A DNA stretch of 64,000 nucleotides from Acidimicrobiia bacterium (GTDB lineage Bacteria; Acidobacteriota; Terriglobia; Bryobacterales; Bryobacteraceae), in contig VFZE01000018.1 of NCBI GenBank assembly GCA_016871315.1, positions 35,699 through 99,698 on the forward strand, given 5' to 3'. The notes under the pieces are model-generated. The model had not been told where the DNA came from and did no database searches. It was given only the letters and a program-made list of their open reading frames with translations. The first letter of the stretch is position 1, and each line of letters starts with the position of its first letter. Positions 6,765 through 24,907 of the stretch are shown piece by piece. The translations under genes were made by a program, and so were the position numbers.

Positions 6765-7703
6765 ATGGCGGAACTGAACCGGCGGGGATTCCTGGGGGCG
6801 TTGGCGGGAGCGGCGGGCGGAGCGCAGAGTCCGCGAGGGTTGAAGCTGTTCCTGAATTGCGACATGGACGGTTCGCCGGGCATTTTTACACGAGAGCAGG
6901 CCTGGTACTGGGAAAACGGGGCGAGGCCGGAAGTTGGCCGTGAGGCGTGCGAGTTGTTCACGGCGGATATCAACGCCGCAAGCGAAGCGGCGCTCGAGGC
7001 CGGGGCGACGGAATTGATCGTGTGCGACACGCATCACGGCGGTGGCAACTTCATTCAGGAGAAACTGCTGCGGGATCCACGGATCTCCTATTTGTACCGC
7101 AGCGTGGGCATAGAGGACGGCAAGCGGCGCTGGATGCCGGGATTGAATGAGACAATGGCGGGGCTGTTGCTGCCGGGGCATCACGCCAAGACCGGCACGC
7201 CGGGCGCTTTTCTGCCGCACACGTGGAATTTTGAGTGGCTGGACTTCACGATCAACGGGGAGAGCGTGGGCGAGATTGGAATTGAAGCATGTTTCGCGGG
7301 GCACTGGGGGATTCCGCTGATCCATGTGCAAGGGGACGAGGCAGCGTGCGCGGAGGCGCGCCGCCAGTTCCCGTGGGTGGTGGCGACGGCGGTGAAGCGC
7401 GGCACGACGGATGCATGCACCGGGCTGACGCCGGAGGCGGCCAAGCGGGAGACCGCGCAAGGGATCAAGCAGGCGATCGAGCTGCTGCGGGCAGGGAAGA
7501 TGCGGCCTTACAAACCCGCGCTGCCAATGACGGTGACGCTGCGGATGCGGACGATGGACGCGGCGGCGCGGGCGGCGCAGCGGCCGGGCGTGTTGAGGCT
7601 GGACGATCACACACTGGAGGCGCGCGTCGGGAGCCAGAGCGAAGTGGTGAAGTGGCTGCTGGGTACGGGGTTGGATATGGCGCCGGCTCCGGAGCGCAAG
7701 TAA
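6765..7703 (+). CDS. M55 family D-aminopeptidase (DppA-like) with a Tat-type signal
   Basis: Twin-arginine N-terminus NRRGFLGALAGAAGG. CDMDGSPG matches DMEGISG, and VCDTHHGGGN is present. Confidence 0.75.
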   Translation: MAELNRRGFLGALAGAAGGAQSPRGLKLFLNCDMDGSPGIFTREQAWYWENGARPEVGREACELFTADINAASEAALEAGATELIVCDTHHGGGNFIQEKLLRDPRISYLYRSVGIEDGKRRWMPGLNETMAGLLLPGHHAKTGTPGAFLPHTWNFEWLDFTINGESVGEIGIEACFAGHWGIPLIHVQGDEAACAEARRQFPWVVATAVKRGTTDACTGLTPEAAKRETAQGIKQAIELLRAGKMRPYKPALPMTVTLRMRTMDAAARAAQRPGVLRLDDHTLEARVGSQSEVVKWLLGTGLDMAPAPERK

Positions 7704-7712
7704 TCCAGAAGT

Positions 7713-10046
7713 TCAGTTCCCGCGGATCGGCGGGGCGCGGAAGGCGATTTCGCCGACCTTGACTTGGAAGATGTTCTGGCTTGGGGAGGGGCCGAGACGG
7801 ACGCGTGCTTGCCAGAGGCCGGGGAAAAGATGGTCGATCGAATCGATGGATTCCACCGAACCGCCGCCGGAGACGACGGTCACCTCGGGCATGATCTCGC
7901 GGAGGGTGACGCCGGAGGGATCGGAGATGCGGAAGCGGAAGGTGGTTGTGGCGTTGATGCCCGCGGTGGCAGATACGTTGAAGAAAGTGACGAAGCCGGG
8001 GTTGGGATTGATAATGGCGTGCCAGTAGGGGACCCGCGCGGCGGCATCGCCGAAGGTCCCTCGGATGCTGAGGATGCCCTGATAAGCGCCAGAGGGAAGA
8101 TCGCCGCCGGGCCAGCGGACCTCGATGGTCTTGCTGGAGCCTGGGGCGAGCGGGAACGAGTTTTCCTGGGGTTCTGGTGTCGGGCCGTCGCCGAAAGACT
8201 GCGGTGTGATGGTGAAGGTGTCGGCAGCGGTACCGAGGTTGGTGATGGTGAGTTGGCGGGACGGGGTGGTGGACCCAGTGGCGGCGCCGAAGCTGAGTGA
8301 GGCGGGAAACACTGCCGCGGGCAGATCGAGCGATGTGGCGAGGTTGAGGATGCCGGCGCCGGCCTGCTGCACCGGGGTCGGCCTTTCATTTTCGAGCGGA
8401 ATCGGGCGGGCGGCATTGATGAGCAGGGAGCGGTACTGACGCTGCGTGAGACCGGGCCGGGCGGCTTTCACCAGAGCCGCTCCGCCGGCGACGATGGGGG
8501 AAGCGAAGCTGGTTCCGTCGACTACGGCGTAGCCGGAGGGATCGAACACTTCGCCTTGGCGGTTGGTGTCTTGCGCTGCGGTGTAGAGCTCCTCGCCGAC
8601 GGCAAGCAGATCGGGCTGGATGGCGAGATTATCGGAAGGGCCGCGGCTGGAGAACGGGCTCACGTCGATGAAGTCGAGCGGGAATGGAGCGCCCTGAAAG
8701 CGGAGTGTGGCTCCCGGCTCGGCATTCTCGGCGAGGAAGGCCTTCACGCGGACGCCGTCGGGATTGGAGATCATCATCGCCGGCAGAAGAGCTTCGCCAA
8801 CGCTCATGATAGATGGCGGCCGGTCATCGGTGTAGACAATCGCTCCAAGGGCTCCTGCGCGGTTGGCGTTATTCAGCTTCTCCTCAAACGTGCAGGTTCC
8901 CCGAAGAATGAGCGCGACCTTGCCGGCCAGGCTGGAAGCGGGAAATGGCAGGCATGCCTGCCCATCCCTGTCGAGAGAGGCGACGTCGGCCAGTGGCGCG
9001 GTGAGAGGTTCCACGGGAAGGGGAGCAGCCGCGGGAATGGCGGCGATGGGAGCAAGATCGGCTACGGTGAAGGTGGAAATGAGAAGCCGGTCATTGATGT
9101 GCGAGCCGACGGAAATGATGGAGGGAGCTCCACTAGGAGAGCTGGTGGTGTTGGGGTTGGGCCCGCTGTTCCCGGCCGATTTGACGACTATCACGCCGGC
9201 CTGGGCTGCGCGCTCCACCGCCCGTACCGTGGCATCTTCTTCCGGACGCGGGGCGGGCAGTATGCCGAGGCTGATATTGATGACATCCATGCCATCGGAG
9301 ACGGCGTCGTCGATAGCGCGGATCACGACGTCCGAGCGCGTCGAGCCTCCGCTGGCGCCGGCGAAAACCTTGTAGTTTCCGAGAAACGCCTTCGGAGCGA
9401 CGCCGGAGATTTCACCGAACGGCGCCTTGTGCAGGATACCGGCGGCGGCCATGGCCACACCTGTGCCGTGGCCGATCTGGTCCCTTGGGTTAGGTTCAGA
9501 CAGGCCGTCGAGCAGGTTTTCGTAGCTGCGGGCGACGATCACCTTGGAACTGGTGGCGCCGAGGTCGGATTCCCGGTTGCCCTTAGGGAAGCCCTGAGGA
9601 ACGGAGAGCGAATCGTCATGGAAGCCGGGATGGTCGGGATTGATGCCGGTATCGATGATGCCGATCTTGATGCCGGCGCCGGCCCGTTCGTGGCCGCCGA
9701 TGCGTGTCCAGGCGTCGCGCCCGCCGGCCAGCCGGACGGCGCTATCGAGTTCGAGCTTCATCTCGTACACGCGGTAGACCCTGGAGACGCCGGGCAGCGT
9801 CGCGAGCGCGGCCATATCGTCATGGGGCATGCGGACGACAACGGCGTTCATGACATTGTCGATCGAATGGATGACCTCACCGCGGGCTTGCTCAATGGCC
9901 AGCCGGAGGGTCTGCGAGAATGCCTGCCGCGTGGCCGCGCGCGCCGGCTCATCCATCTCCAGGATGAACATGCCCGGGATTTCCTGGGCGCCCAGGGGCA
10001 ACAACAGAACGGACAGAAGAAATAGAAAAACCCGTGGCAAGGACAT
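7713..10046 (-). CDS. S8 family (subtilisin-like) serine peptidase with I9 propeptide and PA-domain insert
   Basis: Signal peptide. Catalytic triad boxes IIDTGINPDHPGF (Asp), GHGTGVAMAAAG (His) and DGTSFASPIVAGGAAL (Ser). A PA-like insert lies between His and Ser. Confidence 0.9.
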   Translation of the reverse strand: MSLPRVFLFLLSVLLLPLGAQEIPGMFILEMDEPARAATRQAFSQTLRLAIEQARGEVIHSIDNVMNAVVVRMPHDDMAALATLPGVSRVYRVYEMKLELDSAVRLAGGRDAWTRIGGHERAGAGIKIGIIDTGINPDHPGFHDDSLSVPQGFPKGNRESDLGATSSKVIVARSYENLLDGLSEPNPRDQIGHGTGVAMAAAGILHKAPFGEISGVAPKAFLGNYKVFAGASGGSTRSDVVIRAIDDAVSDGMDVINISLGILPAPRPEEDATVRAVERAAQAGVIVVKSAGNSGPNPNTTSSPSGAPSIISVGSHINDRLLISTFTVADLAPIAAIPAAAPLPVEPLTAPLADVASLDRDGQACLPFPASSLAGKVALILRGTCTFEEKLNNANRAGALGAIVYTDDRPPSIMSVGEALLPAMMISNPDGVRVKAFLAENAEPGATLRFQGAPFPLDFIDVSPFSSRGPSDNLAIQPDLLAVGEELYTAAQDTNRQGEVFDPSGYAVVDGTSFASPIVAGGAALVKAARPGLTQRQYRSLLINAARPIPLENERPTPVQQAGAGILNLATSLDLPAAVFPASLSFGAATGSTTPSRQLTITNLGTAADTFTITPQSFGDGPTPEPQENSFPLAPGSSKTIEVRWPGGDLPSGAYQGILSIRGTFGDAAARVPYWHAIINPNPGFVTFFNVSATAGINATTTFRFRISDPSGVTLREIMPEVTVVSGGGSVESIDSIDHLFPGLWQARVRLGPSPSQNIFQVKVGEIAFRAPPIRGN

Positions 10047-10054
10047 CGGATCAA

Positions 10055-13000
10055 TTACTCAATCGGCAGTGTAGCGACTTTCGATGAGACTCCGTTGACG
10101 GTTACCACAACCGGCTGGAAACCGGATGGGGCGTCGGCGGGCACCCGAACGTTGATTTGATACAGACCAACGAAGAACGGTGCTAGGCCGCTGAAAATCA
10201 CCTCTGCCGGGCGTCCTCCGATGGTCACTTCCGCTAAAACCCGGTTGCGGGCCAAAGGTTCCGCCGGGGAGGGCTCACCCGTGAGCGGTGCGTTGTCCAC
10301 TGGACCTAACCCGTTTGCAAACAATTGGATGAACTGGCCGCGGCGGGCCTGGTTGGAGGGAGTGACAAGCCGGAACTGCTGGTCCTGCGCGGCCCCCAAA
10401 AGCCGGCCGGAACCCGAGTCGGTGTATTCAAACAACCCCGGAGAGAAATCGTTGAGCGGGAGCGTATAGACGGCGCTGGAAACATCGCCGATGCTCACCT
10501 TTAGAAGAGCCGAATTTAACCCTTGTAACTGCCAGGGGACCTGGACGTTGATTTGCGATTCGCTGACGAAGTGGATGCGGCCCGGCAGGCTGAGGCGGCG
10601 CTCGGGGACGTCGAAGCTGACGCTGACGTTGGCGAGGGACAGCGGCAGCGAAGAGGTTATGGCCGTGCGCAGGGATTCCGAGAGATTCCGGCCGAAGATC
10701 GAGACGTAACTGCCCGGTGCGACGCCGCGGCCGACCACTCCGCTGGCGGCGTTGACAACGCCGTCGGTGCGGATGATGGGCACCAGGCGGGAGCGGCCAA
10801 AGAAACTGAGCGTCAGGCCGGCGGCCTCGGCGCTGAACTCCTGCTCGCCGAGGGCGGGGCCGAGGAAGGCGAGCGCATCGGCGATGCCGAGCGAATCGGT
10901 GCGGTCCAGTCCGGTGTCGATGAACCCGCCGCCCCGCACGGCACGAAAGCGGACCGGCACGTTGGCGACGGGCGCGCCGAAGCGGTCGGTGAGTTTAAAG
11001 GCGAGACGGAGACTGGCCTCCACAGGGCGGACAAAATCAAAACCGCGCAGAGGAAGCGCGTTGTCAGAGGTATTCTCCGGAACGATGAAAAGGTAAGGGA
11101 CCCGGAGTTCAACCGGGCCTCCGGTGACGACGACGCGGCCCGAATAGAGACCCGGCTGCGGGCGCGAGCCGTCGATACGCGCGGTGATCTGGCGCGCGGT
11201 CTGCGCCGCAAGGTTGAAGTTCGACTCGGTAAGCACGACACGCGCGGCCGCGGAGGTGGTGACGGCCTGCACTTCCAGGCGCAGAGCGAGTGCGGTGGTT
11301 CCGTGGTTGTTAAGGCGGAAGTTGAGCGCCGGCAGAGCGGCGGTGGTGAGCAGGCCGAAGGAGAGGGTCGAGGGCTCGGCGGTGACGGTGGTGCGCGCCG
11401 GGCCTGAGGCGTCCAGTTTTCCTGCTCCGGCGGCCAGCACGCTGGCGGGCACAACACGGTCGTTCTGATCGATATCGGACAGGCGCGTGGAGGCGGTGTT
11501 CACGACCGCCGATTTCACCTGTTCAGGCACTGCATTGCGGAAGCGCTGCTTGAACAGCGCAGCTGCTCCGGCCGCCATAGGGGCGGAGAAACTGGTCCCT
11601 TGCGTGGCAATGTAGCCGTCGGCGCTGTACATGTCGCCATTCGGATCAAAGCGCTGCGTTGCCGTGTAGATTTCCTGGCCGACTGCGACCACTTCCGGTT
11701 TAATAGCGCCGCCGCCGATGGAGGGGCCATATGAGGAGAAAAAGGCGACGAAGTCCGCATCCTGTGCCAGGGGGCGGAGAGCGGGGTCGATGGTGGCTTG
11801 GGCAGAGGCGTTGGAGGCGATGAACTGCTGGAGGGCTTTTCCGGCAGTGGAGCCGATCATAAGGGTGGGGATGGCGGTTTCGAAGAGGCCGGTGGGGGGG
11901 AAGAGGAAATCGGCGCCGTCGCGTTGCTGGATCATGACCGCGGCGGCTCCGGCGCGCTGGGCGTTCTGGACCTTCGTGACAAAGGTGCAGTCGCCGCGCT
12001 GGATCAGAGCGATGGCGCCGCTGAGCGAGTTATTGGCCAACGGAGAGCAGGCGCGCCCCTCGTCCTGCATGGCGGCGACGTCACGAATGGGGGCGGTGAG
12101 AGGGGTGGCCGGGCGTGGACCGTTACCGAACAAAGCGGAGATCTGCGAAATCGCCGCGCCGCCACCGGGAACGCGCACGGAGAAGACGTAACGTTGGGAG
12201 TTTGTGGAGGCTCCGACTGTCAGAGCGGAGGGGGCGGTGCCGGGAGTGTGTATGGAATTGAACGTGGGGGCAAAGAGGCCGATGTCGCCGTCGTTGCCCG
12301 CCGAGATGACGACCGTAGCGCCGCGCCGGACGGCGTTTTCCACCGCGTCGGCGCGCGGGTCGCAGGCGCGCCCGGAAGGCAAGTTGCAGGCGGCGCCTCG
12401 GTCCGCGGGGCTCCAGATGGCGGGGCTGCCGAGCGACATGACGATGATGTCCATGTTGTCGTTGACGGCGTCGTCCAGCGCGGCGATGATCGCGTCGTCG
12501 AAGGTGACGTCATTCACGCCGGGCGAGCCGAAAATCTTGTAGTTGCCCAGGTAAGCCTTGGGCGCAATGCCGGAAAGCGCGCCGAGCGGCGACGTGTGGC
12601 GGACGCCGGCGGCGACCATGGCGGTGGCGGTCCCGTGGCCGACGCGGTCGCGCGGGGAGAGATCGTCGGGGCGCGAGAAGCGCGGCTCATCAGGCAAAAC
12701 GAGAATTTCGACATAGCTGCGCGCGGCGATGACTTTCGAATTGGTGAACTGGCAATCTTCACCGCGGCAGCGGGGAAAGCCGGCGGGTATGGAAAGGGAG
12801 GGGTCGCGGAATGCGGCATGCTCGTGATCGATGCCTGTGTCAAGGACCGCGATGCGGACCCCGGCTCCGGCATTGGCCTCCCCACCGACAGCTTGCCAGG
12901 CCTGGGCGGTGTTAACGAGCTCCGTGGCGCGAACCATGTGGCGCTTGACGGGCTCCATCGGGACCACGCGCGCCACCCCGGGAAGCGTAGCCAGCCATAC

Positions 13001-16483: not shown

Positions 16484-17776
16484 ATGACCAACCGCCTGTG
16501 GATTCTCCTGATCTGTGTTTTGACGGCTGGCTCGGCCAAAGCGGAAGTGACTTTTGCGCGCGAAGTGTCGCGTATCCTGCAGGCCAAATGCGCGCAGTGC
16601 CACCGTCCGAACGACATTGCGCCCTTCGCTCTGAATGCCTTTGAAGCGGTGCTCGACTGGAAGGATGACATCCGGCGTGTGGTGAGCGAGCGCACGATGC
16701 CGCCCTGGAAGCCCGTGGATGGCCACGGGGAATTCCGCGGCAATTTCGGACTTACCGAACAAGAGCGGAATCAGATTATCGAGTGGATCGACGCCGGTGC
16801 GCCGTTTGGCGATGAGGCGGACCTGCCGGAGCCCTTGCCGGACACCGGTGAATGGGTTTTAGGCGAACCGGACTTGGTGCTGGAAATGCCGGAAGCCTAC
16901 ACGCCGCCGCGCGGCCAGGACATGTACCGCTGCTTCGTTCTGCCGACCGATTCCGACTTGAACCGGTTCGTGAGTGCGGTGGACATACTGCCCGGCAACC
17001 GGCGCTACGTACACCACGTGATCCTGTATCTGGACTCCAGCGGAGTGGCGGAAAAACTCGACGCCGATGAAGAGGGGCCTGGCTATACCTGCTTCGGCGG
17101 ACCACGGACGCCGGTGGCTGCCGATGCTTCGCTCAGCGCCCTGCTGGGCAACGGGATTGGCCTGGGAGGATGGGCGCCCGGTACGCGCCCCACTCCGCTA
17201 CCGGACGGCGTGGGCATGCACCTGCCTCCGAAGGCGCGCATTGTGATGCAGGTTCACTATTACGCGCGCGGCGGGACGGGTCCGGATCAGACAAAAGTGG
17301 GATTGTACTTCTCCAAGGGGAAAGTGGAGAAGCGGCTGATGTTCATTCCAATCGTCCCGCTCGACAGCCTGGGACGCGTGAGCATGCGCATTCCCGCCGG
17401 AGCCGATAATCACGAGATCAAGGCGGAATTCCTCGTACCGCCATTATTGGATGCGCACCTGGTAAATATCTTTCCGCACATGCATCTGCTCGGCAAAGAG
17501 ATCAAGTCCGAAGTGGTGCGTTTGAACGGGCGCGTCACGCCGCTGGTCTACATTGACAAGTGGGACTTCAACTGGCAAGGCGCCTACAGCTACAAGGAAC
17601 AGATTCCGCTGCCGGCATTCTCGCGCATCCGGCTGAGTTGCACCTACGATAATTCGGAAAACAATCCGCGCAACCCGAGCAATCCGTTGAAGACCGTCAC
17701 TTGGGGCGAAGGGACCGAGGACGAGATGTGCCTTGTCTTCCTTGGTCTCACTTTCGACCGCGAGCGGTTGCAGTAA
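16484..17776 (+). CDS. secreted haem-c (CXXCH) domain fused to a PHM/DBH-like type II copper monooxygenase domain
   Basis: Signal peptide and CAQCH at aa 36-40. Candidate CuH ligands HHVILY plus VHYY. Candidate CuM ligands HMHLLG plus EMCLVF. Order and spacing match peptidylglycine/dopamine-beta monooxygenase folds. Confidence 0.7.
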   Translation: MTNRLWILLICVLTAGSAKAEVTFAREVSRILQAKCAQCHRPNDIAPFALNAFEAVLDWKDDIRRVVSERTMPPWKPVDGHGEFRGNFGLTEQERNQIIEWIDAGAPFGDEADLPEPLPDTGEWVLGEPDLVLEMPEAYTPPRGQDMYRCFVLPTDSDLNRFVSAVDILPGNRRYVHHVILYLDSSGVAEKLDADEEGPGYTCFGGPRTPVAADASLSALLGNGIGLGGWAPGTRPTPLPDGVGMHLPPKARIVMQVHYYARGGTGPDQTKVGLYFSKGKVEKRLMFIPIVPLDSLGRVSMRIPAGADNHEIKAEFLVPPLLDAHLVNIFPHMHLLGKEIKSEVVRLNGRVTPLVYIDKWDFNWQGAYSYKEQIPLPAFSRIRLSCTYDNSENNPRNPSNPLKTVTWGEGTEDEMCLVFLGLTFDRERLQ

Positions 17777-19307
17777 CCCACTCCGCTTTCTTCGGCCCGC
17801 TGGCGGCGGCTTGGCCGAGCGCCATGCCGAAGCGCGCCATCTCCTCCATTCCCGAAAAATCCCAATCGGCACGGTATTCATCGCTCGGTCGGTGATAGTG
17901 CCAGGCGGAGTACTCACGTTGACGCTCACGCTTTGCGTCTCGGTCCGTCAGGTACGTGTTGCCCTGCGAGACACTGAAGGCAGCGACGCCGGCTTTGGCG
18001 AAAGGGAAATGATCAGAGCGGAAAAAGCTGCCTTGTTCGGGGCGCGGGTCAGGAGAAATGGTGAGACGGAAGCGTTGCGCGATGGATTGAACTTGCGGCC
18101 AGAATGTGATGCGCTCGGCGCCGTTCACGACGACGTCGGAGGCCCGGCCGAAAGGGTAGAAGGAATCGAAGTTGAGCACGAGGGCGGTTTTCGCCAAGGG
18201 CACAATCGGGTTGGCGGCGTAGTATTCGGCCCCGAGCAGCCCGGCCTCCTCGGCGGCCGTGAAAAGAAAGAGCGCGGTGCGGCGGGGCTTGGGTTCAAGC
18301 GCAGCCCAGGCCTGGGCGATTTCCAGTAGCATCGCACAGCCCGTGGCGTTATCCACGGCGCCGTTGTAGATGCCGTCCCCGTTGGCGGCGCGGTCGATGC
18401 CGAGGTGGTCCCAATGTGCCGCGAACACAATTGCCTCCGAGGCCAGAACGGGATCGGAACCCGGAATGCGTCCGGCGACGTTGCGGACAGGGATCTGCCG
18501 GAAGTTGGATTGGATGGCGGCTTCCAGAGTCTGCTTCAAGGGAATGGCGCGAAAGCCGCGCGCCCCGGCGCGCTTCAGCAGATCATCGAGTTTGTGGCCC
18601 GCCTGAGCCAGCAGCCGCGCCCCGGCCTCCTGATGCAGCCATCCGGCGAAGACCAGGCCCGATTCCGATGCTTGCGCCTCTTCCCTGCCCCAGCTGTTCC
18701 GCACCACATCCCAGCCGTAACCGGCGGTCGAGTTCGTGTGGATGATGAGCGCGGCGGCGGCTCCGCGTCGTGCCGCTTCTTCGAATTTGTAGCTCCAGCG
18801 CCCATAGTAGGTGAGAGCGGGGCCGCCAAAGAGAGCCGGGTCCTTCGATTGCGGCTCATTGGTGAACAGGACTACGGTTTTGCCCTTCACTTCGGCCCCG
18901 CGGTAGTCGTCCCATTGAAACTCCGGCGCGGAGATGCCATGGCCCACGAAGATCATTTCCGCGTTGAGCGAGACCTCCGGCTTGCGTGCACGGGTCTGGC
19001 CAACAAAGTCCTGAGGGAACTGAAACGTGAGGCTGCCGGCGGCGAGCTTGGAGCCGGGCTGCGTCGCGACGCCGGTCAGAGTGACCGGCTGGAACCAGCC
19101 GTCGCCGGATCCCGGTTTGGCGCCGGCGATGGCGAGTTGCGAAGCCAGATACGCAGTTGCAAGTTCGCCGCCCCGTTCCCCTGTGCCGCGCCCCTCCAGC
19201 AGATCGGAGGAGAGGAACTCCACGTGAGCGCGGATGCGGTTGGACGAGATCTCCTGCGCCGGGGCGGAGCCGAGAAGGAGTAAGGTCAGTAGCGTTGTTT
19301 TAGCCAT
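17748..19307 (-). CDS. M28 family metallopeptidase with PA domain, secreted
   Basis: Signal peptide MAKTTLLTLLLLGSAPAQE. Motifs HWDHLG, NGAVDNATG, FTAAEEAGLLG and SDHFPF. Confidence 0.85.
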   Translation of the reverse strand: MAKTTLLTLLLLGSAPAQEISSNRIRAHVEFLSSDLLEGRGTGERGGELATAYLASQLAIAGAKPGSGDGWFQPVTLTGVATQPGSKLAAGSLTFQFPQDFVGQTRARKPEVSLNAEMIFVGHGISAPEFQWDDYRGAEVKGKTVVLFTNEPQSKDPALFGGPALTYYGRWSYKFEEAARRGAAAALIIHTNSTAGYGWDVVRNSWGREEAQASESGLVFAGWLHQEAGARLLAQAGHKLDDLLKRAGARGFRAIPLKQTLEAAIQSNFRQIPVRNVAGRIPGSDPVLASEAIVFAAHWDHLGIDRAANGDGIYNGAVDNATGCAMLLEIAQAWAALEPKPRRTALFLFTAAEEAGLLGAEYYAANPIVPLAKTALVLNFDSFYPFGRASDVVVNGAERITFWPQVQSIAQRFRLTISPDPRPEQGSFFRSDHFPFAKAGVAAFSVSQGNTYLTDRDAKRERQREYSAWHYHRPSDEYRADWDFSGMEEMARFGMALGQAAASGPKKAEWVTATARGRK

Positions 19308-20479
19308 CGTTCAAAGAATTGTTGCCAGGCGGCGTCGATCTTCGGGCCGTTGGCTTTGTGGCCGTCGGCGGTCGAGGCGAACTGGATACGCCCCTCTACG
19401 CCCAGCAGCCGGTAGACTTCCCGGGCGCGGTTGAAATAGCCCCAGCTTTGCAGGTCATCGGAGTCGCCACCGCGGTCCTCGCTATGGCTGCCGCCGATGA
19501 GCAAGAAGGGGCGCGGCGCGCTCAGCGCCATCAGCTCGTGGTGATCGTGTTCAAAGCCGGGGCGCCTTGGATCCGTGTTGAGCATGCTGAGGACGGTGTG
19601 CTCAGCCGTCGGAATCTCCGGCCACTCGCGCGTCCAGTCCAGATACCACGGCGCATACCAGTTCGTGCCGCCGTTGACCGCGATGTGCGGATCCAGCGCG
19701 ACCGTGGCTGTGATCTCGGGAGCGAAGGCCGCGACATACACTGCAGCCTTGGCGCCCAGCGAAAAGCCGATGAAGCCGATACGGCGGCCGTCGACTTGTT
19801 TCAGCGACCGCAAATACTCCGCCTGCCGTTTGGCGTCGTGCACCATCTTCCCCATCGGCAGCCAGCGCCCGAAGCGCGAATAGAGCTTCTCGGCGGCTCC
19901 GGTGCGGAACGTCGTCCCGTCACGGTAATTGCGGATGAAGGACCAGCCGGTGAGCACGACATAGCCGCGCTCGGCGAGCCAGGCGCCCCACCATTGCTCC
20001 GGCGCCGTGTAGTCGGGCGTGGAGGAGGTCCAGGCGATCACGGCAGGGAAGGGCCCGCTGCCTTGCCCTTTGGGAAGCAGCAGCAGGTGTGGCTGGTAGA
20101 AGTCCTTCTCGATGGGAAGTTCCAGGTGCATCCTGGTGTAGGAAGGTTTCTCGAGAGTGTCGAGAATTCGTGGTTTGCGGATATCTCCAAACCACTGCTT
20201 GTCCTGTTTGGCCGGCTCGACCTTGCCAAGGATTTTCATCCAATGCGCAAGGATCTCCGGCCGCCGCTTCCGGGTCCAGTCCTGCGGGGATTTGAGGTCT
20301 TCGACGAGGGAAGGGATGGGCAGGCTATCGGCGCCCGGTTCGGGAGCGGGGGAGCGCGGGTTGGATACCCGGTGCTGGTTGAGGCGGGACGTGTTGGGAA
20401 TCTGGGCCGTCAAGAGAGCCGGCAGCAAAGCCAGCATCCAGCCGGTCCTATAGGCCCGCGACTCTGGCAATCGCATCAA
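19286..20479 (-). CDS. secreted alpha/beta hydrolase (dienelactone hydrolase / acetylxylan esterase-like)
   Basis: Signal peptide and nucleophile elbow GFIGFSLGAK. The long start at 20479 gives a proper positively charged n-region but overlaps the upstream ATPase gene by 32 nt. An alternative ATG lies at 20437. Confidence 0.65.
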   Translation of the reverse strand: MMRLPESRAYRTGWMLALLPALLTAQIPNTSRLNQHRVSNPRSPAPEPGADSLPIPSLVEDLKSPQDWTRKRRPEILAHWMKILGKVEPAKQDKQWFGDIRKPRILDTLEKPSYTRMHLELPIEKDFYQPHLLLLPKGQGSGPFPAVIAWTSSTPDYTAPEQWWGAWLAERGYVVLTGWSFIRNYRDGTTFRTGAAEKLYSRFGRWLPMGKMVHDAKRQAEYLRSLKQVDGRRIGFIGFSLGAKAAVYVAAFAPEITATVALDPHIAVNGGTNWYAPWYLDWTREWPEIPTAEHTVLSMLNTDPRRPGFEHDHHELMALSAPRPFLLIGGSHSEDRGGDSDDLQSWGYFNRAREVYRLLGVEGRIQFASTADGHKANGPKIDAAWQQFFERWLKQRY

Positions 20480-22148
20480 GCTTCTCCATCACTTCCGGAT
20501 CAATATCCTTTGGTGCAACGAAACGGGCTAGCTCATGGGAATTCTTCTTTGCCATGAGATTCGGAAGGCTGAGTTTTTTGAAGAAGGTTCGGAACAGGGG
20601 AGCCAGGAATTGATCACTTACTTTTGTTCCAGGATCCCAAGGTGAGGCATCCGATATCGCTTGGCTGGCGCTCGCAATTTCTTGAATCGCCTCTTCCATC
20701 GCTATACCGGCGTCATGAGCCAGGAGTGGTGCATCCTCGGTGACCCAGGAAGCGTAGGCTTTCAAGGTCTCCGGCTGGCAGATGTAGTTCTCGATTTCGC
20801 GCCGGTTCCAGGAGATTGCTATTTCGCGCAGCTCTGCGGGAAGGCCCTGATCAAGACGATCGAAAATTGCGATCGCCCGCAGTCCAGGGACGGCTTCCCG
20901 GAGGCCATAGTAATGGCGGCGGACCTCATTGGGTTGATTGCCGGTGTAGACAACAAACGGTTTCTCCAGGACCCTCTGGCCCAGGTGGTGACCTGCTCGA
21001 CCAGCCAGCGCGCGAAGCATTGCCAGGTCGGTGGAGCCCTCCAGGTACAACACCCATCCCGTCTGCTCCGCCAAATAATAATCTTGCCAGCCGATCTCTT
21101 TGAGCGCCTTTGCAACCTGGCTGCAGGCGTCGTTAATTCTGTGCGGCCGGCCCACGAAGGCAACCACAACATCACGGCCCGCCGCCTCATTGAGCAAGAC
21201 TTCCGAATGGCTGGCTGCAATGATCTGGTTCTTGTTCTCGGTAGCTACTTCAGTCAGCAACTGGTAGATCTCGCGCTGACGCAGGATCTCCAAGTGGGCA
21301 TCCGGTTCCTCCAGAAGAAGTACCGCGCCTGGATTCGCGTACATATAGGCGAGGAGCAGTAGGGTTTGTTGAAGCCCTCGGCCGGAGGACGACAGGTCGA
21401 GTGGACCTATCGCTGCTTCGCGATACTTCATCACGATTTCGCCTCGTTCTCCGATGTACACAGGAGGGAGAATCGTCACCCCGAACAACCGCTCAATTGT
21501 CTCCGTGAGTTTGTCCCAATGCAGCGAAGAGCCAGAGTGGATGTGGTAGCAGAGATTGCGCAGAACTTCCGCGGTTCTCCCTTCTCCCACCCGCACGTTA
21601 ATGGCCCCAAAATCCAGCCTTGTTTCCGTTGCCGCCAGTCCTGACATCGGAGGAAGGAATGCAACACGGACGCCTGCCGCCGCTGGCGGAATGACCATTC
21701 GCTCCGGCTTTCTCGATTCGTCCATGCGGAGCGGGCGGCAATAAAAAGACTCTTCATTGGCGTAATCAAACTCCAGTCCGCAAGTCCACGGGTGGGAACC
21801 GGTGACCCCCTCGACAACGATGTCGATGCGGACGTTCTTTGTGTCCGGCTTGCCGTTCTCGCGCCGGACGTCTCTTACGTGGAGTTCTCTCCAAAGAAGA
21901 TTAGAGTCCGGAACGGGAAGGGAAATCAGGTCCTTGCGGTTAATGGTGACCCCAGGTCGTTTCTCGGGAGTCTCTTTTCCCTTGCGCTTTTCATTCCAGC
22001 GCCGCAGCCCAATCTCCCAAAGCGCCAGCGCCTGCAGAGCCGAAGTCTTTCCCGAGTTGTTGGGTCCGATGAGAAGAACCGGGCTGCCGAGTTCGATTTC
22101 CAAGTCGTCGAAGCGTTTGAAGTTACGAACTCGGAGTTTGGTCAGCAC
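20448..22148 (-). CDS. ABC-type (AAA_15/AAA_21-like) ATPase with C-terminal Toprim/DUF4435-like region; OLD/PARIS-like defence candidate
   Basis: Walker A GPNNSGKTS, signature-like LSSSGRGLQQ, Walker B VLLLEEPDAHL and H-loop ASHSE. The C-terminal 200 aa carries LYLEGSTD, IFDRLD and WNRREIENY. GTG start is preceded by AGGAGGAG. The gene is visibly less GC-rich than its flanks. Confidence 0.8.
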   Translation of the reverse strand: MLTKLRVRNFKRFDDLEIELGSPVLLIGPNNSGKTSALQALALWEIGLRRWNEKRKGKETPEKRPGVTINRKDLISLPVPDSNLLWRELHVRDVRRENGKPDTKNVRIDIVVEGVTGSHPWTCGLEFDYANEESFYCRPLRMDESRKPERMVIPPAAAGVRVAFLPPMSGLAATETRLDFGAINVRVGEGRTAEVLRNLCYHIHSGSSLHWDKLTETIERLFGVTILPPVYIGERGEIVMKYREAAIGPLDLSSSGRGLQQTLLLLAYMYANPGAVLLLEEPDAHLEILRQREIYQLLTEVATENKNQIIAASHSEVLLNEAAGRDVVVAFVGRPHRINDACSQVAKALKEIGWQDYYLAEQTGWVLYLEGSTDLAMLRALAGRAGHHLGQRVLEKPFVVYTGNQPNEVRRHYYGLREAVPGLRAIAIFDRLDQGLPAELREIAISWNRREIENYICQPETLKAYASWVTEDAPLLAHDAGIAMEEAIQEIASASQAISDASPWDPGTKVSDQFLAPLFRTFFKKLSLPNLMAKKNSHELARFVAPKDIDPEVMEKLDAIARVAGL

Positions 22149-22244
22149 GGTTGACTCCTCCTAGTCTAGGGAATCGGTGGAGAAGGGCAATCATACTAAT
22201 CTTGATAGACATTGAGATGATTCCCTGCTATCCTGTCCTCTAGA

Positions 22245-23150
22245 GTGTCGTCCTTCTCTCTTTCCCATCTTCGCGCTTTGGAGGCCGAGAGTATCCAGAT
22301 TATACGCGAAGTCGCCGCCGAGTTCGCCAAGCCCGTCATGCTCTACTCCATCGGCAAGGACTCCTCCGTCATGGTCCGGCTCGCGCAAAAGGCCTTTCAT
22401 CCGGGCAAAATCCCCTTTCCCTTTCTGCACGTCGACACCACTTACAAGTTCGGCGAGATGATCGAATTCCGCGACCGGTTCATGGCCGGCATCGGCGGGG
22501 AACTGATCGTCAGCACCAACCGCAAGGCGATTGCAGAGGGCGCCAATCCGTTCAAGCTGGGCACCAGCAAGTGTTGCGCTCTGTTGAAGACGCGGGCGCT
22601 ACTGGACGGCCTGGAGGAGGGCGCCTTTGACGCCGCCTTCGGCGGAGCGCGGCGCGACGAAGAGAAGTCGCGCGCCAAGGAGCGGATCTTCAGTTTCCGC
22701 GACAAGTTCGGCCAATGGGATCCGAAAAACCAGCGCCCCGAGCTGTGGAATCTCTACAACGGGCGCGTGGACAAAGGCGAAAGCATCCGCGTCTTCCCGC
22801 TGTCGAACTGGACCGAGCTCGACGTCTGGCACTACATTTACCTGGAGGAGATTCCGGTAGTGCCGCTCTACTTTGCCAAGGAGCGTGAGATGGTGGTGCG
22901 CGGCGGCCAGCTGATCCCGCTCGAGCACAACATGCCGCTGCTGCCCGGCGAGAAGCCGCAAAAAGTCCTGTGCCGGATGAGGTCGCTGGGCTGCACATAC
23001 TGCACCGGCGCCATCCGTTCCGAGGCGGACACACTGCCGAAGATCATCGCCGAGCTGATCGGGTTCCGTCGAAGCGAGCGTGAGAACCGCGTGATCGATC
23101 ACGACCAGGAAGGATCGATGGAGATCAAAAAGCGGGAGGGCTACTTCTAA
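22245..23150 (+). CDS. cysD: sulfate adenylyltransferase subunit 2
   Basis: [22 protein letters not shown]...SIGKDSSVM...HVDTTYKF is nearly collinear with E. coli CysD. GTG start. Confidence 0.95.
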
Positions 23151-23152
23151 CC

Positions 23153-24907
23153 GTGCCGGAAACAACGGTTGCCGCGGTGGAGCGGCCGGAGACCATCGAT
23201 GAGTTTTTGAAGCGCCACGAGCAAAGCGAGCTGCTACGCTTCACGACAGCCGGCAGCGTCGATGACGGCAAGTCGACCCTGATCGGGCGGCTCCTGTACG
23301 ACACAAAGGGGGTGTACGAAGACCAGCTGGCGTCGGTGAAGAACTCGCGCGTAAACCGCTCGACCGGGGCTATCGATTTTTCGCTGCTGACCGACGGCCT
23401 GCGCGCCGAACGCGAGCAGGGCATCACCATCGACGTGGCCTACCGTTATTTCGCCACGCCGAAGAGGAAGTTCATCATCGCCGACACACCCGGCCATGAG
23501 CAGTACACACGCAACATGGCTACCGGGGCATCGACGGCGTCGCTGGCCATTATTCTCATCGATGCGCGTAAAGGCGTCCTGCCGCAATCACGCCGTCACA
23601 CCTACATCAGCTGGCTGCTCGGAATTCCGCATCTTGTGGTGGCAGTCAACAAAATGGACCTGGTGGATTTCAGCGAAGCGGTATTTGAGGAGATCCGCCG
23701 GGACTTCTCCAGCTTCGGGGAGAAGCTAGGCCTGCTGGCGCCGCCGCACTACATCCCAATCAGCGCGCTGGACGGCGACAACGTGGTGGACAAGAGCGCA
23801 CGCACGCCTTGGTATGACGGCCCGAGCCTGCTCGAACATCTGGAAACCGCGCCGATCACCACCGGGTTCAACTTCGGGGAGTTTCGCATGCCGGTACAGT
23901 ACGTGATCCGCCCGAACCTGGACTTCCGCGGCTATGCCGGCCAGATCGCCGCCGGCACCATACGGCCCGGCGACAAAGTGATGTCGTTGCCGTCGGGCCG
24001 GACTTCGAAGGTGCAGACCATCGGCACCTGGGACGGCGACCTCGATGTCGCGTTCCCGCCTCAATCAGTAACCCTGACGCTCGAAGATGAGCTCGATGTC
24101 AGCCGCGGAGACATGCTGGTGAATCCCGGCCGGATGCCCCATGTATCGCGGCGGCTGGAGGCTTACCTGGTGTGGATGAATGCCGAGCCGCTCGTGCGGG
24201 ATCATTCCTACCTGTTGAAGCACACGACGCAGCAGGTGGGCGTGACGGTGACCTCCATCGAAGGGCGCGTCGACGTCAACACGCTCAAGGAGGACAAGCC
24301 GGAGAGTCTCGCCCTCAATGAAATCGGGCGCGTGCGGCTGGAGACAACCAAACCGCTCTACTATGACGCCTACCGTAAGATCCGGTGGACGGGCAGCTTT
24401 GTTTTGATCGATCCGATCACGAATGCGACCCTGGCGGCGGGGATGTTGCAGGAGCGCGAGGCTTCCGGAGTGGGACCATCGGCGGGCCCGATGCTGAATC
24501 TGGGCGCCGGGCGGCTGACGCCAGCCGAGCGCTATGCGCGCGCCGGCCATCAGCCGGCGACGATCTGGCTGACGGCGCGCACGGAGCTTCTATGGCTGCT
24601 GGAGCGGAGGCTTTTTGAGCGCGGCTGCCTGGTGCAAGCGCTGTCGGATGAGGAAGAGACGCATCGTCTGCCGGAGGCGGCGCGGATTTTGAACGGTGGC
24701 GGGCTGATCGCGATCTGCTCCACCGGCTCCGATGACGCCGACGATCTGGCGAGAGTGGAACGGCTGATAGGGAGCGAGAGGCTGTTCGCCTATCACCCGG
24801 ATGAGTTGTCGCCCAAGGATGAGGCTGCTTGCGAACGGATTATCGGCGACTTGGAGGCGCGCGGAATTCTCACTCCGGCCGACTTCAGTTCCGGCGAAGG
24901 GATTTAG
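23153..24907 (+). CDS. cysN: sulfate adenylyltransferase subunit 1 (GTPase) with C-terminal P-loop-less APS-kinase-like extension
   Basis: G-domain motifs [17 protein letters not shown] and NKMD, followed by EF-Tu-like domains II and III. An extra 134 aa aligns to the CysC N-terminal region but lacks the GxxGxGKS loop. Confidence 0.9.

Follow-up and report, generated by a model that had tools for sequence, protein, structure and literature searches.

The DNA analysed here, called the window, is a stretch of 64,000 nucleotides (nt) from GenBank assembly GCA_016871315.1 (contig VFZE01000018.1, positions 35,699 to 99,698), and its minus strand carries a gene for a predicted protein of 566 amino acids (aa) in which an ABC-type ATPase and a Toprim-like nuclease tail are joined in one chain. 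Genes for a dienelactone hydrolase and an M28 peptidase lie downstream on the same strand, and cysDN lies upstream. The gene belongs to a large and strongly conserved family, its composition departs from that of its neighbours, and the site that it occupies is empty in close relatives. It probably represents a horizontally acquired, stand-alone ATPase-Toprim enzyme of the OLD family that would serve as a single-gene defence module.

Organization of the gene

The original prediction had described an open reading frame (ORF) of 566 aa with a GTG start and a strong Shine-Dalgarno (SD) sequence, and all of these are present. The N-terminus MLTKL... agrees residue by residue with that of the homologues in the alignment, which confirms the GTG as the start. 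The ATPase and tail motifs quoted in that prediction were also recovered at the residues given, and nearly all of their key positions are invariant or conserved in at least 90% of the sequences when conservation is scored over 56 diverse family members, down to 36% identity. The features of the gene are as follows, in window coordinates.

20448 to 22148, minus strand: ORF of 566 aa, GTG start and TAG stop, encoding the predicted one-chain ABC ATPase and Toprim-like nuclease
22155 to 22162, minus strand: SD sequence AGGAGGAG, read directly, with a 6-nt spacer to the GTG
21144 to 22148, minus strand: ABC-type ATPase region, aa 1 to about 335 (Pfam AAA_15/AAA_21/SMC_N, PDB profile search and Foldseek)
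Within the ATPase region, minus strand, aa about 45 to 250: beta-rich and helical insertion (secondary structure of the model)
22041 to 22067, minus strand: Walker A GPNNSGKTS, aa 28-36; G28, G33 and K34 invariant in the 56 members
21366 to 21395, minus strand: ABC signature-like LSSSGRGLQQ, aa 252-261; G258 and Q261 invariant, G256 at least 90% conserved
21291 to 21323, minus strand: Walker B and D-loop VLLLEEPDAHL, aa 276-286; E280 here against D in at least 90% of the family
21201 to 21215, minus strand: H-loop ASHSE, aa 312-316; H314 and S315 invariant
20781 to 21059, minus strand: Toprim-like core, aa about 364-456 (confident structural model, best seven Foldseek matches)
21027 to 21050, minus strand: first Toprim motif LYLEGSTD, aa 367-374; E370 at least 90% conserved, D374 invariant
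20850 to 20864, minus strand: second Toprim motif FDRLD, aa 429-433; D430 at least 90% conserved, position 432 (L432) not acidic
20784 to 20810, minus strand: WNRREIENY, aa 447-455, candidate metal-B ligands; W447, E451, E453, N454 and Y455 all at least 90% conserved
20451 to 20780, minus strand: C-terminal all-helical domain, aa about 457-566, with conserved K534 (alignment and model)

The window protein is the shortest of its family. It is without the last 8-12 residues or so, which are non-conserved in its relatives, and in the family alignment it is also without several residues around aa 470-480.

The ATPase region

Pfam comparison of the whole protein gave AAA_21 (2.6e-19) and AAA_15 (4.6e-19), plus SMC_N and AAA_23, which agrees with the complete ABC/AAA_15-21-type ATPase proposed beforehand and places it within aa 1 to about 335. 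The Walker A, Walker B and H-loop that mark the N-terminal ABC ATPase of the OLD family are all found, and these motifs are invariant in the family. Among solved proteins, 6p74, the Class 1 OLD of Thermus scotoductus, comes nearest in sequence (3.4e-9 with the single sequence and 4.8e-16 with the family profile), with an alignment that covers Walker A and the block from the signature to the H-loop. Foldseek with the full-length AlphaFold model (predicted local distance difference test, pLDDT, 75) returned Septu PtuA, OLD 6p74, GajA and retron PtuA at 1e-10 to 1e-8. The PADLOC matches named 'AriA' have model lengths and coordinates identical to those of the generic AAA_15/AAA_21 matches and were therefore rejected as specific evidence.

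A stretch at aa 166-193 (window 21570-21653), which reads PPMSGL...GEGRTAEVLRNLC (full stretch PPMSGLAATETRLDFGAINVRVGEGRTA), is one of the most strongly conserved segments of the protein, yet it is modelled with pLDDT below 50. Speculatively, it might be an interface, a nucleic-acid-binding loop or a substrate loop that becomes ordered only in a complex.

A divergent Toprim in the C-terminal tail

The full-length Foldseek comparison reflects mainly the ATPase and says nothing useful about the tail, for which a separate AlphaFold2 model was therefore made (aa 340-566, alignment of 38 sequences). The model is confident (pLDDT 96.3, predicted template-modelling score 0.91) and consists of a strand-helix-helix-strand-helix-strand-strand succession followed by five helices. 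In a Foldseek search of 350,542 PDB chains its best seven matches are all Toprim C-terminal regions of the OLD family, namely XccOLD (6njx, 6njw and 6njv), BpOLD (6nk8_A), AriB (8ux9_A and 8v46_D) and GajA (8j4t_A), with BpOLD at probability 0.98 and template-modelling (TM) scores of 0.44/0.48; a ranking of seven out of seven appears too specific for chance. On the sequence side, hhalign of the family profile with P2 Old follows a path through the ABC signature, Walker B and H-loop and then pairs VLYLEGSTD with LLVEGKTE of the first Toprim motif (E = 1.9e-4, probability 47%). This motif alignment appeared only with the full-length profile, the tail alone being not significant against P2 Old (probability 0.6%). 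Among the 5,027 PADLOC models run on 38 isolated tails, AriAB alone recurs (13/38, best 3.5e-4), the others being AriB in two members and GajA and RT-Toprim in one each. On the whole window protein AriAB scores 1.5e-16 and 58 bits, a raw E-value and not the PADLOC calling threshold; its best stretch is aa 272-464, which reaches from Walker B across the catalytic core and takes in FDRLD, and on the window tail alone it scores 0.05-0.06. PHROGs gave no match on the tail, and Foldseek of the tail against viral BFVD gave none below E = 1.

From four independent lines, the confident fold, the Foldseek ranking, the P2 Old alignment and the AriAB matches, we identify the tail as a probable divergent OLD-type Toprim. 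The earlier suggestion that the order and spacing of its motifs recall the OLD/AriB Toprim is consistent with these comparisons, the similarity being real and distant. Five acids of the tail are conserved among the 56 members, E370, D374 (invariant), D430, E451 and E453, and judging from their conservation and order they may together form one metal-binding site. The catalytic set of AriB is E26/D30/D88/E90/E122 (PMC11464382), that of TsOLD is E377/D381/D431/D433/S478/E480, and BpOLD has T506-x-E508 (PMC7049728). The E370-x3-D374 spacing is the same as in AriB E26/D30 and TsOLD E377/D381, and the E451-x-E453 pattern resembles TsOLD S478-x-E480 and BpOLD T506-x-E508; E451 and E453 lie 21-23 residues past D430, versus 34 in AriB.

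Composition and insertion site

The gene had been described as less GC-rich than its surroundings, and the computed values bear this out. Its guanine-plus-cytosine content (GC) is 0.563 against 0.625 ± 0.018 in the 34 other window genes (z = -3.4), its GC at third codon positions (GC3) is 0.631 against 0.781 ± 0.029 (z = -5.1), and its codon-usage log-likelihood is the second lowest of the 35 window genes (z = -2.5). Such a deviation is typical for the family, since gene GC lies under flank GC in 63 of 64 loci (mean -0.054); across these loci it tracks host GC (r = 0.87).

Orthologues of the hydrolase exist at 77-80% identity, and two loci (L088 and L090) have the hydrolase divergent beside cysD-cysN with the gene absent, the called gap between hydrolase and cysD being 48 and 76 nt. 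In blastn, window 24743-22279 matches L088 4476-6918, and window 20380-19299 matches L088 7112-8181, at about 75% identity; between these matches the window is longer by about 1.7 kb, which corresponds to the length of the ORF. Three features describe the site.

20457 to 22165, minus strand: inserted DNA, approximate, consisting of the ORF and a leader of about 17 nt with no 3' flank (blastn and alignments with L088 and L090)
22163 to 22244, no strand: ancestral cysD-hydrolase spacer, now upstream of the inserted gene (aligns with the whole L088/L090 spacer)
20435 to 20437, minus strand: probable true start ATG of the hydrolase, 10 nt past the TAG (aligns with the orthologue ATG in L088 and L090)

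The alignment of the spacer with L088 and L090 runs to about 10 nt before their hydrolase ATG and includes a conserved TCTATCnAGATTnGTATGATTG. Gene callers start the hydrolase at the ATG of 20476 (19286-20476), which gives a 29-nt overlap with the inserted gene. The original prediction had taken this to mean that the 3' end of the gene overlaps the signal-peptide region of the hydrolase, which is probably an artefact of start choice, as the alignment with L088 and L090 sets the ATG at 20437 and leaves no overlap. The filled arrangement occurs with an identical protein in three independent assemblies. The absence of the last 8-12 residues is consistent with a breakpoint just inside the incoming 3' end, the stop then being supplied at the junction. 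The terminator and promoter scan found no intrinsic terminator between the gene and the hydrolase, so that the gene, the hydrolase and the M28 peptidase are probably co-transcribed from the former hydrolase promoter. Taken with the GC and codon deviation and the lack of shared synteny (see below), the empty sites support the proposal that the gene is a horizontally acquired insertion.

The gene is not flanked by convincing repeats, either direct or inverted, and the window contains no tRNAs. Non-coding flanks conserved between loci were found only among closely related genomes. At the junctions of the insert (20446-20457 and 22161-22171), CTA-rich words, CCTAGACTAGG upstream and GCCTATAGG downstream, resemble the ancestral GCTAGGCTATCC before the hydrolase ATG. 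A target duplication or microhomology of 8-9 nt between CCTAGACTAGG/GCCTATAGG and GCTAGGCTATCC was considered, and the sequences are too short and degenerate to call. Within the spacer, a motif of about 22 nt, TCTATCAAGATTAGTATGATTG, is shared between window 22188-22209, L088 at about 6996-7019 and L090 at about 1054-1075, where coding DNA is only about 75% identical; it may be a promoter or a regulator site for cysDN or for the hydrolase.

Distribution and conservation of the family

A word-indexed protein search gave at least 8,000 clusters. The best 120 clusters are all full-length (572-601 aa, 65-72% identical) and are named 'AAA family ATPase', 'ATP-dependent endonuclease' or, by mis-annotation, ABC transporter subunits. 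A HMMER search with the tail alone gave 701 clusters at 50% identity. The tail lies at about positions 320-570 of a protein of about 550-615 aa in every full-length match, which means that it is always fused to the same ATPase. In genomes (one per species, 185,579 species) at least 427 loci were confirmed, a lower bound from the first 600 pattern matches. The best 80 of them (L006-L085) are all from metagenome-assembled genomes (MAGs), with no cultured isolate, and cover more than 15 phyla, including Acidobacteriota, Chloroflexota, Planctomycetota, Pseudomonadota, Thermodesulfobacteriota and Latescibacterota, and further Verrucomicrobiota, Nitrospirota, Gemmatimonadota, Actinomycetota, Poribacteria and Binatota. 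A full-length copy with 61% identity also lies at 8001-9710 of L058, whose contig (1.0 Mb) belongs to a MAG with the label Candidatus Bathyarchaeota, which is either an inter-domain transfer or a binning or labelling error.

Identity was compared among 66 proteins (64 genome loci with L001, L005 and the window protein). Two proteins of one phylum are on average 62.8% identical and two of different phyla 61.3%, with a minimum of 50.6%. The nearest neighbour belongs to the same phylum for 34 of the 66 proteins versus 8.6 expected by chance, and the window protein has its nearest relatives in Thermodesulfobacteriota, Verrucomicrobiota and KSB1, not in Acidobacteriota. The ratio of nonsynonymous to synonymous substitution rates (dN/dS) is 0.10-0.14 in five close pairs. 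The family thus looks like one with wide horizontal spread and local vertical inheritance under strong purifying selection.

Genomic neighbourhood

The four genes on each side were clustered in 72 homologous loci. No conserved partner gene was found in the window or in these loci, where the largest neighbour family reaches 6 of 72 at varying positions, and the absence of a partner noted in the original prediction therefore extends from the window to the family. A GajB/UvrD-like helicase is absent from both sides of the window gene and is not a conserved neighbour in the 72 loci; PtuB HNH and reverse transcriptase neighbours were likewise not found in the 72 neighbourhoods, and Rfam gave no match on window 19000-23500. 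None of 85 homologous loci compared shares the neighbours of the window, so the gene does not occupy a conserved site as a core gene would. Within some lineages (Poribacteria and Acidimicrobiales) it is syntenic.

Genes of defence type occur at some loci. A type I restriction-modification (R-M) system stands directly upstream of the homologue in L002 and L003, MazE/PIN stands downstream in L005, and the divergent member in L098 is followed downstream by a type III methylase, a Schlafen-like ATPase, MNT/HEPN and a ResIII enzyme. ResIII, methylase, SNF2 or DrmD-like neighbours are found in a few further loci.

Comparison with known ATPase-nuclease systems

Class 1 OLD proteins (P2 Old, TsOLD 6p74, Vibrio cholerae OLD and Escherichia coli YbjD) share with the window protein a single chain of about 530-590 aa composed of an N-terminal ABC ATPase with an insert and a C-terminal Toprim or Toprim-like part. 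They are single genes, and the absence of a helicase, reverse transcriptase or other partner in the 72 loci agrees with this. Additionally, 6p74 is the best PDB sequence match, the first Toprim motif aligns with P2 Old, and the E-x3-D and E/S-x-E ligand pattern is near that of TsOLD (E377/D381 and S478/E480). On the other hand, only the ATPase aligns significantly by sequence, the window tail is unmatched by Pfam OLD-like_TOPRIM or Toprim, and its DxD has one Asp. Class 1 is further marked by the absence of a C-terminal helical domain and by a degenerate signature, the latter in all Class 1 homologues (PMC7049728). In contrast to TsOLD, the window protein has a helical C-terminal domain of about 105 aa (helices 459-566), and it keeps SGRGLQQ.

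Another comparison concerns the fused AriA-AriB of PARIS (Class 4), likewise a single polypeptide in which an AAA_15/AAA_21 ATPase is joined to a Toprim whose C-terminal part is helical. Junction and core of the window protein fall within the PADLOC AriAB match, AriB is near in structure, and the first three acids are spaced similarly. Unlike PARIS, the family gives no DUF4435 match, and 58 bits were obtained on an AriAB model of 694 positions; the AriB part of that model exceeds the window tail by about 60 residues, the D-x-E of the tail is incomplete, and the window locus has no P4-satellite or prophage context. Strict PARIS membership was rejected for want of DUF4435. The best structural matches of the tail are instead in Class 2 OLD and GajA (BpOLD 6nk8, XccOLD 6njv-x, GajA 8sm3/8j4t), which also have a Toprim and a helical domain that may contribute a catalytic Lys. 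GajA aligns over its full length in Foldseek, but the window protein is shorter and has no GajB, and the PADLOC GajA matches are driven by the ATPase. Septu PtuA and the retron PtuA-OLD (Class 3) are the top Foldseek matches of the ATPase part, with PADLOC, NCBIfam and PDB sequence matches at the Walker A region, whereas the window locus has no PtuB HNH, reverse transcriptase or non-coding RNA, and PtuA has no Toprim. Gabija, Septu, retron and two-gene PARIS were rejected, as clustering of the four neighbours on each side in the 72 loci gave no partner gene.

The gene is thus Class 1 by genomic definition, and nearest to fused PARIS by tail sequence and to Class 2 by tail structure. Because of these mixed features and failed memberships it is filed as a variant within the OLD family, a placement set by features and not by an all-class phylogeny. 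As for the 'fused PARIS/OLD-type' label of the original prediction, the ATPase-Toprim chain holds, and the data do not separate fused PARIS from Class 1 OLD.

Proposed mechanism and alternative explanations

The following course of events is proposed for a stand-alone OLD-family defence module. Horizontal transfer would have brought the gene in on a fragment hardly longer than its ORF, and this fragment would have inserted about 10 nt upstream of the start of the dienelactone hydrolase, inside the short cysD-hydrolase spacer, where the former hydrolase promoter would now drive the gene and the hydrolase and M28 peptidase would be read through behind it. The ABC ATPase (Walker A K34, SGRGLQQ, catalytic E281 and H314) would dimerise or oligomerise and hold the nuclease inactive, until an infection-associated cue alters ATP binding or hydrolysis and licenses the Toprim site (E370, D374, D430 and E451/E453). 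This site would then cut nucleic acid, by DNA nicking or degradation or by tRNA cleavage, and so block replication of a phage or mobile element, possibly at a cost to the cell. Nuclease activity, defence role and mechanism are all proposed by analogy with TsOLD/P2 Old, GajA and PARIS (PMC7049728; PMC10568477; PMC11464382), and in the light of these systems the gene is a reasonable defence candidate for which DNA and tRNA targets fit equally. Class 1 OLD systems are defined as single genes that usually do not lie beside other defence genes (PMC10568477), and in Vibrio cholerae a Class 1 OLD is reported to provide defence (PMC12392090).

Several observations weigh against this proposal. In the tail, Pfam gave no match on the isolated window sequence at E ≤ 10. 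DUF4435 (PF14491) was absent from the whole protein at E ≤ 1 and from the window tail at E ≤ 10, as well as from the 56 full-length relatives at E ≤ 0.01 and from the 38 isolated tails at E ≤ 1, which leaves of the earlier description 'DUF4435-like' a remote resemblance. OLD-like_TOPRIM was found in one of the 56 members (6e-4) and otherwise no Pfam Toprim model was significant. Additionally, the hidden Markov model profile of the tail had zero matches among PDB sequences at E ≤ 10. The Foldseek scores of the seven neighbours are weak (E 0.03-0.4, TM 0.3-0.48), which makes the relationship to OLD remote, and the second acid of the DxD/DxE pair is absent in the family, where the consensus is FDR. 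As to defence, an identity of about 61% across phyla at near-constant length is atypical for arms-race genes. Among the immediate neighbours 143 Pfam families were counted, each present in at most 4 of 130 proteins and most of them metabolic, and defence islands make up a minority of the loci, in counts that have no control-gene baseline. With tblastn, 72,556 plasmids gave no close homologue (distant ATPase-only matches on 8 plasmids) and 50,697 phage records gave no match, so that these searches identified no transfer vehicle. Finally, the archaeal Cran1 represents an OLD-family class that is not a defence protein (PMC12796447).

This precedent leads to the main rival of a defence mechanism, a cellular role as an accessory ATPase-nickase of genome maintenance or of chromatin or the cell cycle, like Cran1 or the RecF/Rad50-type ABC ATPases. 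The cross-phylum identity (minimum about 51%) at constant length favours it, and it would also suit a dN/dS of about 0.1, the synteny within Poribacteria and Acidimicrobiales, the mostly housekeeping or metabolic neighbours, the existence of a non-defence OLD class (PMC12796447) and the tracking of host GC by the gene (r = 0.87), which suggests long residence. It is nonetheless quite unlikely, as the gene is patchy (at least 427 loci in 185,579 species genomes), is absent at the same site in close relatives, stands at a different location in every genome examined, has a GC systematically below that of its host and a phylogeny incongruent with taxonomy, and occasionally occurs in islands of R-M, toxin-antitoxin or HEPN genes. 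A defence protein of a narrower kind would be a strict fused PARIS, in which the ATPase senses a phage anti-restriction protein or something similar and a DUF4435-type Toprim cleaves host tRNA and arrests translation. AriA-AriB fusions have been reported (PMC11464382), the AriAB match at 1.5e-16 spans the ATPase-Toprim junction, AriAB is the sole model that matches the tails consistently, both AriB chains are among the top six structural neighbours, and the E370/D374...D430 spacings of 4 and 60 compare with 4 and 62 in E26/D30...D88 of AriB. This too is unlikely, given that DUF4435 is found in 0 of 56 members and 0 of 38 tails, that the 'AriA' matches duplicate generic ATPase ones, that no AriA or AriB is among the 60 full-length PDB profile matches listed (best 6p74) and the tail profile has none at E ≤ 10, that Class 2 OLD regions outrank AriB structurally, that the D88-x-E90 pair of AriB is reduced to its first acid, and that 58 bits on 694 positions denote a distant relative at best.

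Two other explanations concern loss of function. If the Toprim were degenerate, the protein would act through its ATPase only and might then be a sensor, a scaffold or a toxin that depletes ATP; a case of this kind has been reported in E. coli YbjD. The reduction of DxD to a single Asp and the failure of Pfam Toprim models to recognise the tail (the window protein, and all but one of the 56 members) speak for this, as do two precedents: in YbjD the Toprim is reported to be dispensable and the ATPase essential (PMC13261556), and the function of Cran1 depends on its ATPase and not on its nuclease (PMC12796447). It is very unlikely, since the five acids together with W447, N454, Y455 and K534 are at least 90% conserved in members down to 36% identity, a degree of conservation not easily accounted for unless there is a catalytic or ligand-binding site, and since E451-x-E453 could supply the absent ligand. 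The copy in this genome might alternatively be an inactive remnant, clipped at its C-terminus and altered at Walker B (D280E), being the shortest member of the family, without its last 8-12 residues and several at aa 470-480. Such a remnant is highly improbable: the 566 codons are intact behind a strong SD, all invariant catalytic residues are kept, the absent C-terminal residues are non-conserved in the family, the active TsOLD naturally carries Glu in place of the Walker B Asp (PMC7049728), and the identical protein occurs in the three assemblies.

A broader possibility, which we regard as doubtful, is that the family is a distinct and unclassified OLD class. Its members would be single chains whose ABC signature is canonical, whose Toprim has one Asp and which carry a helical cap, and they would move across more than 15 phyla, and possibly into archaea, as naked ORF-sized units that bring no mobile-element machinery with them. 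The identity of about 60% would in that case perhaps come from monitoring or cutting a universal molecule, such as tRNA or the replication and recombination apparatus, and not a fast-evolving phage protein.

Significance

Neither the architecture nor the likely mechanism is new. The novelty lies in a subfamily that is very large, very conserved and uncharacterised, in its tail, unrecognised by the Pfam Toprim and DUF4435 models, and in a clean ORF-sized insertion with identifiable empty sites. Of all branches of a very widespread defence family, the stand-alone Class 1 OLD proteins are the one least well understood, and a phenotype has been demonstrated for few of them. Uncultivated phyla of soil, sediment and freshwater contain the present subfamily in abundance. 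Its features come from three classes, as it is a single gene like Class 1, has a helical cap like Class 2 and has an AriAB-like core, as in Class 4. Given its extreme conservation, results for a single member would probably apply to thousands of genomes, and mutants can be designed directly from the conserved residues, which makes the subfamily a tractable target. The filled and empty sites form a natural before-and-after pair for the capture of a single defence ORF into a host promoter.

Further observations on the locus and its relatives

In L001 (KSB1), a PA/M28 peptidase at 9800-12103 directly follows the homologue and is 31% identical to the M28 peptidase of the window (17748-19307). An M28 peptidase thus occurs near the gene in 2 of about 73 loci, which is probably a coincidence. 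In L094, a DUF3780 protein (563-1156) is encoded 21 nt upstream, on the same strand, of the divergent member P0266 (34% tail identity); this neighbour was not seen beside three other divergent members examined.

A hydrolase identical to that of the window is labelled 'Acidimicrobiia bacterium' at NCBI, and its named homologues listed are from Bryobacteraceae, Bryobacterales, Acidobacteriia or Acidobacteriota; the source MAG therefore seems to carry a wrong taxonomic label. Further downstream in the window, a Cu2_monooxygen-like gene on the plus strand (16484-17776) and the M28 peptidase gene on the minus strand (17748-19307) share, as called, a 29-nt overlap of their 3' ends at 17748-17776.

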